From: Octopus sinensis
Taxonomy: Eukaryota
Length of the DNA: 64,000 nt
Direction of reading: 5' to 3'
Assembly (NCBI RefSeq): GCF_006345805.1
Contig: NW_021831856.1
Coordinates: forward strand, 1-64,000
Within the stretch, counting starts at the first letter, position 1, and each line of letters begins with the position of its first letter. Position numbers and translations under genes: made by a program. The notes beneath the pieces were generated by a model. That model ran no database searches. It saw only the letters and a program-made list of their open reading frames with translations, and was not told the DNA's origin. Of this stretch, positions 10,062-18,185 are shown piece after piece.

Positions 10062-10175
10062 ATTTAAACGACAGCTAGCTGATATGCGAGCGGCTGAGTA
10101 TCGGGCACTGATGGCATTGTCCAGAAACATTACCTGCACCCAGGTAGCGTGTGGGTTAGTTGATATTGAAAAGAG
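10062..10175 (+). CDS. Neuropeptide precursor exon A (PXXXamide / invertebrate PTH-like peptide)
   Basis: cttacag acceptor, AG|gtatag donor, 114 nt, phase 2-2; (R)FKR-QLADMRAAEYRALMALSRNITCTQVACGLVDIEK(S); paralogous to exon B. Confidence 0.75.
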
Positions 10176-10403
10176 GTATAGTAAGCTCTAGTTCAACCCC
10201 CAAACACTATCCTTTTACCTAGTCAAGACCTAAACCAAAGCCCTTTCTCACTTACCCGCCTCAAATCCTTAAGTAAATGGTCAATGCATTACATTGTTAA
10301 TATTTTTTTTCGTGTTTTGTGTTATACCAATAATTAATAACGTAGCAATGATAGATTCAATTTTTACAGTTCAAATTTTTGTACCATTTCATTCATAAAT
10401 ATT

Positions 10404-10464
<61 letters not shown>

Positions 10465-11093
10465 TATATATGTATATTATATATAGTACTCTACCTTCAT
10501 ACTGTGTGGGCTGAGGTTCACACTTCATAAGCCGCTAATATGGCTTGGTTAAACTTCTGATTTAGGTAGCTAAATAATTTATCACTCTTGTGTCGTAGTT
10601 AACACGGCTATACACATTACAGCAGACTCGGAGTTCAATTTCCATAGATCATTTAATGCATATAAATAGTATATGCATATACACAGATATTAATGTATAA
10701 GTATATATATATGGCCATTTTACGCACACATACACGCATATGCACGTGTATATAGTAATATTTAAGTAAATATTTTGACCATTTGTTAAAGGAATATCGT
10801 GTTACCCTACCAACCACCTCCATTTCCAGTAAAACTCCATTGCCTCTTCTATAGTTATCTTTATCCAATGATACCCGTTCCTCACATTTCACATAGTTGG
10901 TCACATTATAATTGTTATGTTATTACAAAAAGCAATATTGATTTTATTTTGTTGTCATTACCTTTTACGTTGATATGTGCAATTTTCCTTCGCATTCCTT
11001 CTCGTATTTATAACGTTTGTTTCTTATCGACCTGTCAAATTGTTCTGTCATTATTGTTGATGTCCATTTGTGTGTTGTTTTACCTGTTTACAG

Positions 11094-11213
11094 ATCGAAG
11101 CGCCAGACAGGCGATATTAAAACAGCTGAATACCAAGCATGGTTAGCACTTGGTGGCATTGTACCACCGGGTTGTGTCGAGGTTGCCTGTGGGGTAGTCG
11201 ATGTACACGCCAG
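11094..11213 (+). CDS. Neuropeptide precursor exon B (PXXXamide / invertebrate PTH-like peptide)
   Basis: ttttacctgtttacag acceptor, AG|gtacag donor, 120 nt, phase 2-2; (R)SKR-QTGDIKTAEYQAWLALGGIVPPGCVEVACGVVDVHA(S). Confidence 0.82.
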
Positions 11214-11405
11214 GTACAGTAAAATACAAAAAAAACAGTAAAAGCCAAAATCCTGCTAAGCCATGAAAAATCCATTTTCAGGAATAGAAAAGACGCAAAG
11301 TTTTATGTTCTACCCTCCAGTAACATTGCTCTCCCTTCTCAATTTGTTGATTGATAAATGTTGTTTGCGTGTTTGTACATATGTATATAGGCATGTATTT
11401 ATGTA

Positions 11406-11466
<61 letters not shown>

Positions 11467-11499
11467 TATATATGTATGTAGGTATGTATGAAGGTATGT

Positions 11500-11684
11500 A
11501 TTACAATCCACCCAACTGAAAATGGAGGCCCCTGCTACAAACCAGGGTTCCATTTAAGAGTAATATAGGTCTTCCCGTATAAGCACTGTGGTGGCATCAT
11601 TCGGGAGCTAACACAATGAGAAAGCGCACTGTGATCAACGGTGTACAACAACATTTGATAGTCTGGTCTATCTATACTGTGCTG

Positions 11685-11690
<6 letters not shown>
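11500..11690 (+). mobile_element. SINE family C, 3' portion
   Basis: Shares the acaacat(t/c)tgatagt tail with 51298-51475. Confidence 0.5.
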
Positions 11691-11734
<44 letters not shown>

Positions 11735-11737
<3 letters not shown>

Positions 11738-11958
11738 AATATTAGGGAATAAATCCAAATTTACAGGGAAAAAATCAGATTTAGGATTAAATCCAATTTT
11801 ATAGTAAAATATTATATAATATTAATTAGAGACAAAACCACCATTTTGCAAAACATACAAGGAAAGACTTAATCAATACATAAAATTTTAATGAAAAGTA
11901 AAAACCGCCACTACAATGTTTCATTGTTTGTTTTGCAAAATAGTGGTTTTGTCTCTAA

Positions 11959-11970
<12 letters not shown>
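11735..11970. mobile_element. Fold-back Penelope-like terminal fragment in (TA)n
   Basis: ~47-bp inverted repeat 11814-11860 / 11924-11970; (TA)n on both sides. Confidence 0.6.
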
Positions 11971-14517: not shown

Positions 14518-14549
<32 letters not shown>

Positions 14550-14809
14550 TGTCATATGCACATACTTATAGACAGACAGGGGCACGGACACACACATAAA
14601 CACACAAACACACAGTTGTGTAGCTTAGTTTTGCATCTGATTTATCATTAACTGAGTATTATTACTGTAATTATAGATAATGTTGCAGTTACTGTAGGTA
14701 TTAAAAACATATTTACACCCTTATATTTATTTTTATTATATTTCCCTTGTACACGCATGATCTTGTCCTTTGTAATCTACTTAAATAGGGTAGTATATAT
14801 ATATATATA

Positions 14810-15686
14810 TTCATAAATGAGGGTGAAAAATTAGATATTAATTTAATAATACCATCAGTTTAACACCAAGTGGCCTAGCACATAAAAAAACCAGGGAGAC
14901 AGTACAAATTATACGTAAATATAAGAGAGTTAACGTTAAGTGGTTAACTCTAGTGCTAGAAATAGCTCCTTATTCTGGTATAGCCACCGAAATTGTTTCC
15001 ACAAAAGAAATAACATTACCTTCAACGTAAGGAAAGCGAAATACAACGAAAAGATAGATTAATGCTGAACAATTGTTTCTTTATCAACATAATATGCAAT
15101 TATACTCACATATTTGTCTATAAGTCATCGGCAGCATTTGTCCTCGATTCAATTTATCAGACCCTCACGGGCGATAAATACCCGTGCGGTCTGATCGATT
15201 GCATACATAGTTGTGGTTTAGCTTCCCCGCCAAAAAGCATGCTAAGACTTAGTGGAAACTGATACTGCATATAATATTTGCTGCAGCATATTAAATTTAT
15301 AAATTCATAAATGAGGGTGAAAAATTAGATATTAATTTAATAATACCATCAGTTTAACACCAAGTGGCCTAGCACATAAAAAACCAGGGAGACAGTACAA
15401 ATTTATACGTAAATATAAGAGAGTTAACGTTAAGTGGTTAACTCTAGTGCTAGAAATAGCTCCTTATTCTGGTATAGCCACCGAAGTTGTTTCCACAAAA
15501 GAAATAACATTTTATGTGCTAGGCCACTTGGTGTTAAACTGATGGTATTATTAAATTAATTTCTAATTTTTCACCCTCATTTATGAATTTATAAATTTAA
15601 TATGCTGCAGCAAATATTATATGCAGTATCAGTTTCCACTAAGTCTTAGCATGCTTTTTGGCGGGGAAGCTAAACCACAACTATGT
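14810..15686 (-). mobile_element. Hammerhead-containing ~494-bp non-coding unit: partial tandem copy plus inverted copy
   Basis: 14810-15016 repeated at 15304-15510; 15511-15686 is the reverse complement of ~15205-15381; microsatellite flanks. Confidence 0.8.
15061..15138 (-). ncRNA. Type I hammerhead ribozyme motif (U4C variant)
   Basis: aatgctg-CCGATGA-[long stem II]-GAAA-caattg-TT-cagcatt; 7-bp stem I, palindromic stem III, GUU triplet. Confidence 0.75.
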
Positions 15687-16752
15687 CTGTCTACATACAT
15701 ACGTATGTAGACATACATACATACATACGTATGTAGACATACATACATACATATATACATACATACATGTATGTATTATGTATAATGAAAGTTAAAACAA
15801 AGTTTGTTTATAAAATATTTAATTACATTATCTTATGCGTAGGTGATTTACCATGAAAAATATCAGCCATTAAAAAGTAGACCTTATTAAGTCGTTTGCT
15901 TTGTGCTGTTAAATCTCCTGAAGTTGAGTTAATCTCATTAGAGTCCTTCTGTATTCTCACTCTGCACTTCCGACACTGTTATGGTATGGGCTATCACAAT
16001 CACAACTACAACGATATATTGAATGTGTGTGTGGATGTGTGGATGTGTGTGTGAGTGTGTATGTATATACATATACATATGCTTACCCATTTACATGCAT
16101 GGACTTGAAGTGTATGTTTGGGTCATTTTTGTTTATTTGTCTGTGTGGACAGGGAGCGCTTTACATGCTTATAGTGATGTATATAATACGAACTGGTTCC
16201 TGTTTACTATATTGCTGCTTCTAGCCACTCCGAAATGACATTTCCCAAATGCTTTCTGTTTCTTCTCTTTGTTTAAATCTCATCTAATTAACTCGTATAT
16301 TCAATTTCTGTAACCTAATCATATTCCTATCATTGTATTGTTTTCTACATCACACAGCAGAATATAGATGTTGCGTCGAACAAACAAACGAATGAACGAA
16401 CTACTGCAATAAGATCCACACTGAGATACCACTAATATACTGTACTTAAATATGAGCCAGATATTATATTGTTTTATTGCCCTACTTCTCTATATTTTCT
16501 TCTGTTAGGTGAAAGAAGAATCATTAACATGAAAACCAAATTCGATTATAAAAATTGTGGTAAAATGATGACACCAAAACCATTGTTTTTGAAAATATTC
16601 ATTCTTCTGTATTGTTGTATAATATGCCTGTCAAAATATAATGATTTGATTTATTGCAATTGTTTATAACATGTTAATATCATACTTTCAATTATTTCAG
16701 CATAAATTTATATGGTATATTGGTTTGTGTGAGGGGATAGTATTTGTGCATA

Positions 16753-16829
<77 letters not shown>

Positions 16830-16841
16830 GCGCGTGAGTGA

Positions 16842-16904
<63 letters not shown>

Positions 16905-16912
<8 letters not shown>

Positions 16913-17752
16913 TGAGTAAATTGTCGCCACTATATAGTTTTAAGTTCGAGCATTCGCATAGTTCGTTTTTAATTTTATCGACTACACAGTATAGTAGGAT
17001 CAGTTGGGCACCGTCTGTGGGAAAAACAGCACTATGACGCAATTCACTCTCCCTGAAATTTGGAAACGACATGCTGTACTGTTTGACATTCGTGCCAGAA
17101 GCTCCAATAGGAACATTTCAGAGTGTTTGTGTGTCAATCTGAGGACATGTACTGAGAGCGATAAAAATCAAACATCTAGTCAACATCATGGTGTTTGGAG
17201 TGATCGCTAGTGACGGCGAGCTTACGCCTCCATTCATCATCCCACGGGGCCTCAGACTCAACACGAAAGGCCTACATTAAGTGCCTGGAGGAGCTAGTGC
17301 TGCCCTGGGTGAAGCGGGTGACATCTAGGAGACCATATGTCTGGCAACACGATACTACACCATACCATATAGGCAGGACAATTTCTGCGACCCCATCACC
17401 CCAAATATCTGGCCACATAACTTCCGAGACTACAACCGTCTTAATTATTACGTGTGGGGTGCATTTGACCGAGAGGCCAACAAAACTCCTTGTAACACCA
17501 AAGATGAACTAAAGGGAAGGATCATGGCAGCATTCACCGACTTAAAAAAGGTGATCGTCCAGGAGAGTTGCAGGAGATTCCGAAGTTGTCTGGGGGCCAT
17601 GGTTGAAGCTAATGGCGATTTTGTTAAATAATCTATTCTTTAGTATGTCAAGAAAGTCTATGTAATTTTGGTCAATATATCTATTAAAATGAGATGTCAG
17701 TGTTACTTTCATTTTTTCGTAATTTAGACGACAATTTATTCACTGCACACTG
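16905..17752 (+). mobile_element. Internally deleted Tc1/mariner (maT/DD37D-like) element
   Basis: NIMVFGVI, YIKCLEELVLPW, YVWQHDTTPYH, LNYYVWG remnants; TIR-like tga(g/a)taaattgtcg at both ends. Confidence 0.8.
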
Positions 17753-17993
17753 TATATATATGTGTGTGTGTGTTTGTGTGTGTATGTATATATTTATATG
17801 CGTGTTCCTGTGTGTGAGCGTGTATGGATGTAAATGTGTGCATATGTGTGTGTGTGTATACATATATAATATGTAATAATACAAATTACATATGTATTGT
17901 TATATAGATTTAATATTAAATATATTGTATATATGTATGTACATACACATGCGTGTGTATCTGTGATTGCGTGTATGTGTGTGCGTGTGCGTT

Positions 17994-18048
<55 letters not shown>

Positions 18049-18127
18049 GTGAGTCTGTTTCTACGAGGTTCGTCAGTGTGTATTTCTTTGGAGTCTTTCT
18101 TAAATGAAATTTCTGATTTTACTTCAG

Positions 18128-18185
18128 CGGTAAACGGACATCCTTCGACCAGAGGATAGCCGAATTAGAGCTCTTAAGGCCATGA
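18128..18185 (+). CDS. Terminal coding exon of the neuropeptide precursor (amidation/cleavage signal)
   Basis: gattttacttcag acceptor, phase 2: (AG)C GGT AAA CGG = S-G-K-R then TSFDQRIAELELLRP*; completes either peptide exon in frame. Confidence 0.78.

Follow-up and report, generated by a model that had tools for sequence, protein, structure and literature searches.

The DNA analysed here, referred to as the window, is a 64,000-nucleotide stretch of the Octopus sinensis genome (contig NW_021831856.1, positions 1 to 64,000), which carries a neuropeptide gene on its forward strand. Two cassette exons, A (10062-10175, 114 nt) and B (11094-11213, 120 nt), are separated by an intron of 918 nt. Both are in phase 2-2, are preceded by ACAG and end in AG, followed by GTATAG in exon A and GTACAG in exon B, and each encodes a QSamide-type peptide, which in exon A follows a K-R site and has an N-terminal Gln and two Cys. 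The two translations share 19 of 41 residues (46%; E = 2e-13), with an alignment score of 85, where 5000 shuffles gave at most 40, and a six-frame search of the window finds the C..VACG motif in exons A and B only. The two paralogous peptide exons with canonical splice sites proposed in a preliminary description of this DNA are thus borne out and, as homologous neighbours of the same phase and similar length, match the arrangement expected of a mutually exclusive cluster. When joined to the last coding exon, they specify peptides of 35 (A) and 37 (B) residues. Exon A is present in two O. sinensis RefSeq models (P0006 and P0007) and, compared by eye, matches transcript 1 of Octopus bimaculoides (Xie 2020, PMC7224569, Table S1), with a single residue difference in the peptide. 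Exon B is absent from all O. sinensis database entries recovered; its peptide is identical in O. bimaculoides (P0002 and transcript 2 of the same table) and Octopus vulgaris (P0003).

The exon beginning at 18128, which had been described as a terminal amidation exon ending at 18185, is instead a third peptide cassette (exon C, 18128-18225, forward strand), separated from exon B by an intron of 6914 nt. Its acceptor is genuine, a GTAGGT donor is present and the true last exon starts at 25835. It encodes a cysteine-free peptide of the PXXXamide/iPTH type (D-Q-R-I-A-E-L ... H-G-Q), in which the S-D-Q-R-x-A-E-L motif of iPTH is recognizable with Phe replacing the Ser before Asp in this copy. Exon C is 98 nt in length in the window and 99 nt in the other copies found in this genome, on the chromosomal contig C5 and on contig C11358, and it is also intact in O. 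vulgaris P0001. The stop codon at 18183-18185 arises only because the exon is one base short and the frame is shifted. Since 178 gap openings separate the window from C11358 in 29 kb, small indel errors are plausible, and the missing base is most likely a contig error; if it were real, this allele would yield no PXXXamide peptide. The S-G-K-R sequence attributed to a downstream exon does arise when A or B is joined to the acceptor at 18128, but it is peculiar to this gene copy, the same junction reading S-V-K-R in the other copy and R-T-K-R in Argonauta.

The first 10,061 nucleotides of the window (1-10061, forward strand) belong to the intron between the signal-peptide exon and exon A, base 1 aligning just downstream of the signal exon. 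By colinearity with contig C11358, this exon, which has a phase-2 donor, is placed approximately 210 bases before window base 1; it was located at G000:C5:126823307-126823420 and C11358:44204-44296, and in both places it encodes a hydrophobic N-terminus, consistent with a signal peptide. The common last coding exon (25835-25940, forward strand), also found in P0002-P0009, completes a Ser or Ile codon and encodes the amidation and cleavage signal G-K-K-K-R, followed by a C-terminal flanking peptide that runs to the stop codon. As the fourth exon of the published and database models, it is the source of amidation in them. A candidate polyadenylation signal (AATAAA) follows at 26297-26302 on the same strand. 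Both the last coding exon and the off-contig signal exon were omitted from the preliminary gene model. Apart from A, B and C, no cassette was detected across the window or in the stretches covered of C5 (50 kb), C11358 (44 kb) and contig C11597 (12 kb). An 'EEELRSKR'-like match at approximately 12100 was dismissed as chance, since it falls in a repeat of high copy number (all 40 scored candidates at 94-100%), and the two outermost exons of O. vulgaris P0001, corresponding to window positions 9166-9216 and 19732-19821, were judged to be mis-predictions.

A profile built from six octopod- and cuttlefish-type precursors retrieved the named Platynereis QSGamide precursor (P0057) with an E value of 2.2e-8. 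All 21 aligned QS-type precursors retain the R-Q pair, an Asp, the two Cys, C-G and S-G without change. Exons A and B conform to this type: the signal peptide is followed by a basic site and an N-terminal Gln, the two Cys precede G-x-[VIF]-D (with Asp in at least 90% of the 21 aligned precursors), and joining to the exon at 25835 creates S-G-K-K-K-R. Both encoded peptides contain two Cys and lack the S-D-Q-R motif of the cysteine-free PXXXamide/iPTH type. The original assignment to the iPTH/PXXXamide family therefore stands in that the gene encodes a neuropeptide precursor of that related family, but A and B are of the cysteine-bearing QSamide type and the iPTH-type peptide resides in the exon at 18128. 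Exon C joined to the last exon gives I-G-K-K-K-R, which contains the G-[KR]-[KR] amidation motif, and octopus exon-C peptides carry Val or Phe at position -4, unlike PXXXamide, which has Pro. Since this Pro is only mildly conserved and the octopus peptide is listed as iPTH by Xie 2020 (PMC7224569), exon C is regarded as encoding an iPTH-family member and not a literal PXXXamide. The term 'PTH-like' is a name derived from the receptor, because iPTH is <12% identical to vertebrate PTH (Xie 2020). No Pfam family was assigned to any of six proteins at E<=1, and the UniRef name 'corticotropin-releasing factor domain' attached to P0009 and P0047 was not reproduced by Pfam for P0009. Recruitment into venom was also considered and set aside: in the part of a cephalopod venom preprint (10.64898/2026.02.02.703354) that was available, QSG appears merely in the abbreviation list.

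Platynereis QSGamide, Tribolium iPTH, Sepia PXXXamide and the octopus precursor have in common a signal peptide, a K-R site, a helix-type N-terminus with D-x-[RK]-x-A-E, G-x-[VI]-D near the end and G-[KR]-[KR]. Insect iPTH contains no Cys, and its counterpart in octopus is exon C, not A or B. The O. bimaculoides iPTH gene (LOC106873782 in RefSeq; Xie 2020, Table S1) has the same signal exon, three cassettes and last exon as found here, and conservation in other cephalopods, which the earlier description left to be examined, is evident from this table and from cephalopod-type database precursors. In the oyster Crassostrea gigas, the QSamide3/PXXXamide gene (PMC8398477) similarly produces QSamide or PXXXamide precursors from a single gene, with cassettes used singly or paired; the numbers of cassettes differ, with one QS and two PXXX in the oyster, which also has two separate QSamide genes, and two QS and one PXXX in octopus. 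Gene 2 of Lottia gigantea (Xie 2020, Table S1; P0054) shares the 2+1 layout of the octopus gene, with divergent sequences.

Five precursor forms are represented in databases or in print, i.e. signal-A-last, signal-B-last, signal-C-last, signal-A-C-last and signal-B-C-last. Among nine cephalopod-type database precursors (P0001-P0009), two contain A without B, four contain B without A, one contains only C, one contains no cassette and one contains A with B; those from RefSeq and O. vulgaris are gene models. The signal-B-last form P0005 and the signal-C-last form P0008 lie on contigs of 1223 and 1041 bases, respectively, which points to spliced transcripts in a cuttlefish-like animal. In Table S1 of Xie 2020 (PMC7224569), O. 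bimaculoides transcripts 1-3 carry A, B or C singly, and matching alternative transcripts are given for Sepia, Lottia, oyster, Capitella, Lingula and Phoronis; the 'transcript found' mark is placed on some oyster entries and on none of the Octopus entries. The oyster QSamide3/PXXXamide gene is differentially spliced, its peptides have been detected by mass spectrometry, and its upstream peptide is left unamidated when a second cassette follows (PMC8398477). Of four sequencing runs compared with exon A (9950-10400), one gave a contig that crosses it unspliced and three gave no sequence, with neither joints nor loose ends, a result that does not bear on splicing; none of the 24 runs listed for 18100-18900 is on record as RNA, and no spliced read or contig was recovered from O. 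sinensis.

The alternative use of A and B suggested in the preliminary description is in line with the transcripts of Xie 2020 and the database models, but its stricter version, mutual exclusion, lacks any enforcing feature that could be found. A dedicated Dscam-like mechanism would agree with the absence of A and B together from all eight signal-peptide-bearing cephalopod precursors (P0002-P0009) and with their listing as separate transcripts by Xie 2020. However, the length of the A-B intron argues against steric exclusion, A and B are each a multiple of three in phase 2-2, so that every combination stays in frame and co-inclusion gives an R-S-K-R junction, and the perfect 11-nt complementarity between the flanking introns amounts to low-complexity or scattered matches. 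Moreover, predictions with two QS modules exist for Lottia, Batillaria, Bradybaena and O. vulgaris, and such a mechanism is therefore somewhat unlikely. The tandem inclusion of A and B, raised as a second option, appears in one automatic O. vulgaris prediction (P0001), which lacks the signal and last exons; together with the 4 of 80 stored family proteins that have two QS modules in tandem, all of them gene predictions, this prediction suggests that co-inclusion is possible. It is very unlikely that one long A+B+C precursor is the main product and the single-cassette forms are annotation choices, since P0001, which joins all three cassettes in one chain, starts and finishes in sequence that all other models treat as intron, and single-cassette forms come from the short transcript-like contigs of P0005 and P0008 and from oyster transcripts marked as found (Xie 2020, Table S1), even though QS-PX and QS-PX-PX arrangements account for 13 and 5 of the 80 family precursors, respectively. 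In most cases, A and B are probably included one without the other, as a result of splice-site selection and not of a structural bar. The gene, exons A and B and their alternative use are already published for a congeneric octopus and the oyster, and the observation as first written thus adds little to what is in print.

Whereas Xie 2020 lists a single gene in O. bimaculoides, two copies are likely present here, for the second of which, with its altered peptides, no published description was found. For most of its span, the window likely represents the second of two gene copies that look recent. A single assembly contains the locus in three different haplotypes (the window, C5 and C11358), and O. 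vulgaris has two separate predictions, one per copy type, and both exon-B types on a contig of equal size. Between the copies, 15 of 96 nt differ in exon C, compared with 30 of 746 in the flanks (P = 5e-5). In O. bimaculoides, exon C agrees with the C5 copy at eight of nine diagnostic residues and with copy 2 at none, whereas the window exon C is of the diverged copy-2 type and, unlike that of O. bimaculoides, has Gly as its first residue and lacks one base. In a tree of 12 exon-C peptides, the copy-2 peptides group with Argonauta (support 82/79), where no branch was starred and Argonauta forms a long branch, so that this grouping is taken as a hint only. Altered B and C peptides are likely in the second copy, as seen in the O. 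sinensis genome and in O. vulgaris. The Gly with which copy-2 exon C begins would allow two amidated peptides to be made from a message that contains A+C or B+C.

It is unlikely that the window is, instead of a second gene, a divergent allele of the one chromosomal gene or a mosaic created in its assembly. Such an origin would account for its colinearity with C5 over approximately 60 kb, with some stretches 98-99% identical, and for its patchy site patterns, in which exon B has the chromosomal sequence, matching C5 at seven consecutive informative sites, and the flanks follow C11358. No tandem junction between the copies was found using C5 DNA beside a scaffold gap as the query, the matches of which were swamped by repeats. 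However, the window, C5 and C11358 each contain private blocks of variants (e.g. 85 window-private sites in 2001-5000), and three such sets are more than one diploid locus allows, assuming that the assembly derives from one animal. In addition to containing both exon-B types, O. vulgaris shares the C11358 type at seven of nine diagnostic residues in exon C and four of five in exon B. It is still less likely that the window copy is a decaying duplicate in which the frameshift is real and relaxed selection has altered the peptides. The missing base would fit decay, as would pN/pS ratios not significantly >1 for exons C (0.165/0.128) and B (6 of 6 changes nonsynonymous, P = 0.18), which give no indication of positive selection, but exon C is intact in P0001 and in the near-identical C11358, on which a RefSeq gene model exists, and no splice site or cleavage site and neither Cys has been lost; the gap openings noted above again make an indel error plausible.

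We tentatively suggest that the iPTH-family gene was duplicated in the O. sinensis/O. vulgaris lineage, perhaps before the split from O. bimaculoides. According to this scenario, gene conversion would maintain near-identity of the introns, signal exon and exon A, and selection would hold B and C apart; copy 2 would make new ligands and, by the Val-to-Gly change at the start of exon C, two amidated hormones per message. Exon B of the window may be a conversion tract from copy 1.

Exons, phases, splice sites, family membership and the recorded precursor forms were observed directly; the processing steps given here are predicted from them. The precursor would enter the secretory pathway and be cleaved at K-R, the peptide adjoining the last exon would be amidated at G-K-K-K-R, and the A and B peptides may each acquire a pyroglutamate and one disulfide. 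The products may act on lophotrochozoan PTH-receptor-like class B GPCRs. In Tribolium, iPTH is an agonist of PTH-receptor-like GPCRs, with EC50 values of 63 and 413 nM, and receptor activation had not yet been demonstrated for lophotrochozoans according to Thiel 2021.

The locus is very probably the octopus QSamide/PXXXamide (iPTH-family) neuropeptide gene, in which cassettes A, B and C are flanked by a single signal-peptide exon and a single amidation exon, and likely combinatorial splicing could yield up to three different amidated hormones. These results name an 'uncharacterized' octopus gene, give its exact junctions and offer candidate ligands for the lophotrochozoan PTH-type receptor. 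If the two copies are kept distinct at the peptide exons alone, they would offer a small and elegant example of how hormones diversify under gene conversion.

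Exon A spans 10062-10175 (114 nt) and exon B spans 11094-11213 (120 nt); each is bounded by AG and GT and is in phase 2-2. The two have 19 of 41 residues in common (E 2e-13), and their alignment scored 85, compared with a best of 40 among 5000 shuffles. The C..VACG motif has no further occurrence in the window beyond these two exons. By their sequence, A and B encode QSamide (QSGamide)-type peptides: all 21 aligned precursors, a hand-picked subset of 45 single-QS proteins, keep R-Q, Asp, both Cys, C-G, and S-G without variation. A profile made from six precursors matched 59 representatives, including the named Platynereis QSGamide precursor (E 2.2e-8).

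Further exons were placed on the window by mapping database precursors. The third peptide cassette, exon C (18128-18225), is followed by a GTAGGT donor, and its peptide is of the cysteine-free PXXXamide/iPTH type, without Pro at position -4; Pfam has a model for neither this type nor the QSamide type. Exon C is 98 nt long in the window and 99 nt in both other copies of the locus in the same genome, and the stop at 18183-18185 is due to the one missing base. The precursor mapping also identified the last coding exon (25835-25940); A or B joined to it reads S-G-K-K-K-R, and C joined to it reads I-G-K-K-K-R. The signal-peptide exon, which lies ~210 bases ahead of window base 1 and terminates in phase 2, is absent from the contig of the window but present on C5, the chromosomal contig carrying copy 1 of the gene, and on C11358, a contig of the type of a likely copy 2. 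Since each cassette is a multiple of three (C when intact) with phase 2-2, every combination is in frame. A search of the window and of stretches of C5 (50 kb), C11358 (44 kb), and C11597 (12 kb) turned up no fourth cassette. The preliminary description, a PTH-like (PXXXamide) gene with two peptide exons ending at 18185, was correct in its two peptide exons, which are supported by splice ends, phase, and similarity above shuffles, and in the family; it did not recognise the exon at 18128 as a third cassette, missed the last exon and the signal exon, assigned to A and B the type that belongs to C, and took as the gene end a stop within an exon that runs to 18225.

Nine cephalopod-type database precursors (P0001-P0009) display several cassette combinations: A without B in two (signal-A-C-last and signal-A-last, both O. 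sinensis RefSeq), B without A in four, C only in one, no cassette in one, and A, B, and C together in one, an O. vulgaris prediction that lacks both the signal exon and the last exon. Two of the nine come from contigs of ~1 kb and are therefore probably spliced transcripts. In P0009 (O. bimaculoides, 64 aa), the signal exon is joined straight to the last exon and all three cassettes are skipped; it would yield no hormone peptide and may be an annotation artefact. Motif counts in 80 family proteins were QS (45), QS-PX (13), PX (7), QS-PX-PX (5), QS-QS-PX (3), QS-QS (1), PX-PX (1), and none (5). Several family genes occur in the land snail Bradybaena similaris (P0013, P0017, P0018, and P0034), and one of them is predicted to contain two tandem QS peptides.

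Combinatorial cassette splicing is the simplest model suggested by these sequences. A cassette joined to the last exon would be amidated, an upstream cassette would be freed at K-R without an amide, and A and B would mostly be used one at a time. No feature enforcing strict A/B exclusion was found: an intron of 918 nt separates A from B, using both exons together keeps the frame, and intronic complementarity around the two exons yielded nothing convincing. The predicted cleavage, pyroglutamate, disulfide, and amidation are based on established prohormone processing and conservation. Exon C starts with S-G-K-R in copy 2, likely the type of the window, and with S-V-K-R in copy 1 and O. bimaculoides, so that in copy 2 an upstream A or B peptide is predicted to be amidated even with C included. 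The amidation initially proposed from S-G-K-R would apply to the upstream peptide of a copy 2 message, but not with exon C as a terminal exon.

The locus is present on C5, the contig of the window, and C11358, and the last exon also on C11597. The window is colinear with C5 over ~60 kb, in blocks mostly 90-98% identical, and is ~98% identical to C11358. All three contain private variants (85 window-private sites in 2001-5000), which suggests two loci if the assembly derives from one animal; a second copy of the gene is likely from these comparisons. In O. vulgaris, CAI9723493 and CAI9723499 are two predictions placed on a contig of the same length; one is of C5 type, and the other carries C11358-type residues at 4 of the 5 diagnostic positions in exon B and 7 of the 9 in exon C. 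Against duplication, identity to C5 reaches 98-99% in parts of the flanks, and a tandem junction between the copies was not found in repeat-dominated searches with C5 DNA beside a scaffold gap. A 100-N scaffold gap (C5:126752818-126752917) is located exactly where the alignment to window 50787 restarts, and the 16 kb of C5 ahead of it has no match to window 38606-50787; the second copy may belong in this gap. The second copy was not found in print among papers mainly outside subscription journals, searched mostly by main text.

Between C5 and C11358, differences number 0/111 nt in exon A, 1/87 in the signal exon, 4/102 in the last exon, and 6/117 in exon B, those in exon B all nonsynonymous (P=0.18 for the pattern, P=0.11 versus flanks). 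Exon C differs at 15/96 nt versus 30/746 in its flanks (P=5e-5), with no significant difference between pN (0.165) and pS (0.128). At nine diagnostic exon C residues, O. bimaculoides agrees with copy 1 at eight and copy 2 at none, and Argonauta with each at four. This pattern hints, with a weak tree, that the copies may have split earlier than intron identity implies, the remainder being homogenised by conversion. At exon B, the window agrees with C5 over seven informative sites in a row (11086-11206), with C11358-matching sites on both sides; this is a conversion tract or else a mosaic of the assembly. The single contig of sequencing run X1 has the bases of C5 at 9985 and 10313 but those of the window at 10249 and 10306, suggesting additional recombinant haplotypes. 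We regard duplication with conversion as a tentative reading of the locus, somewhat short of an even chance.

Elsewhere in the window, an isolated fragment of eukaryotic large-subunit rRNA (58095-58571, + strand; Rfam RF02543, 182.6 bits, model positions 24-664 of 3401) sits in a GC-rich stretch yielding spurious long ORFs. An AT-rich satellite (27749-29776) is built from units of ~23 bp with a higher-order period of 492 bp, and a similar-looking array, judged from the likeness of ORF translations alone, occupies ~60900-63500. The high-copy interspersed repeat at 12040-12230 is shared with C11358 and absent at this place in C5; an EEELRSKR-like string in it, resembling the signal/B junction, was judged to be chance. 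A 285-codon open frame in intron 1 (1342-2199, + strand) had no Pfam match and resembles a retroelement reverse-transcriptase remnant.

The gene is real and belongs to the family proposed, and, beyond the incomplete first model, it is already published. Table S1 of Xie et al. 2020 (PMC7224569) lists O. bimaculoides transcripts 1, 2, and 3 carrying A, B, and C singly with the same signal and last exons, its Octopus entries bearing no 'transcript found' mark, and tabulates alternative transcripts for Sepia, Lottia, oyster, annelids, Lingula, and Phoronis. In oyster, one gene is differentially spliced into QSamide and PXXXamide precursors, the peptides of which were detected by mass spectrometry, with function stated there to be unknown (PMC8398477). 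The core of the finding is therefore known. Other literature covered was De Oliveira 2019 (PMC6425005) and a preprint on iPTH in ticks. Thiel et al. 2021 (PMC8557429) equated QSGamide with iPTH and described a lophotrochozoan receptor assay as still outstanding. By analogy with Tribolium iPTH (EC50 63 and 413 nM; PMC7224569), the octopus peptides may act on a PTH-receptor-like class B GPCR.
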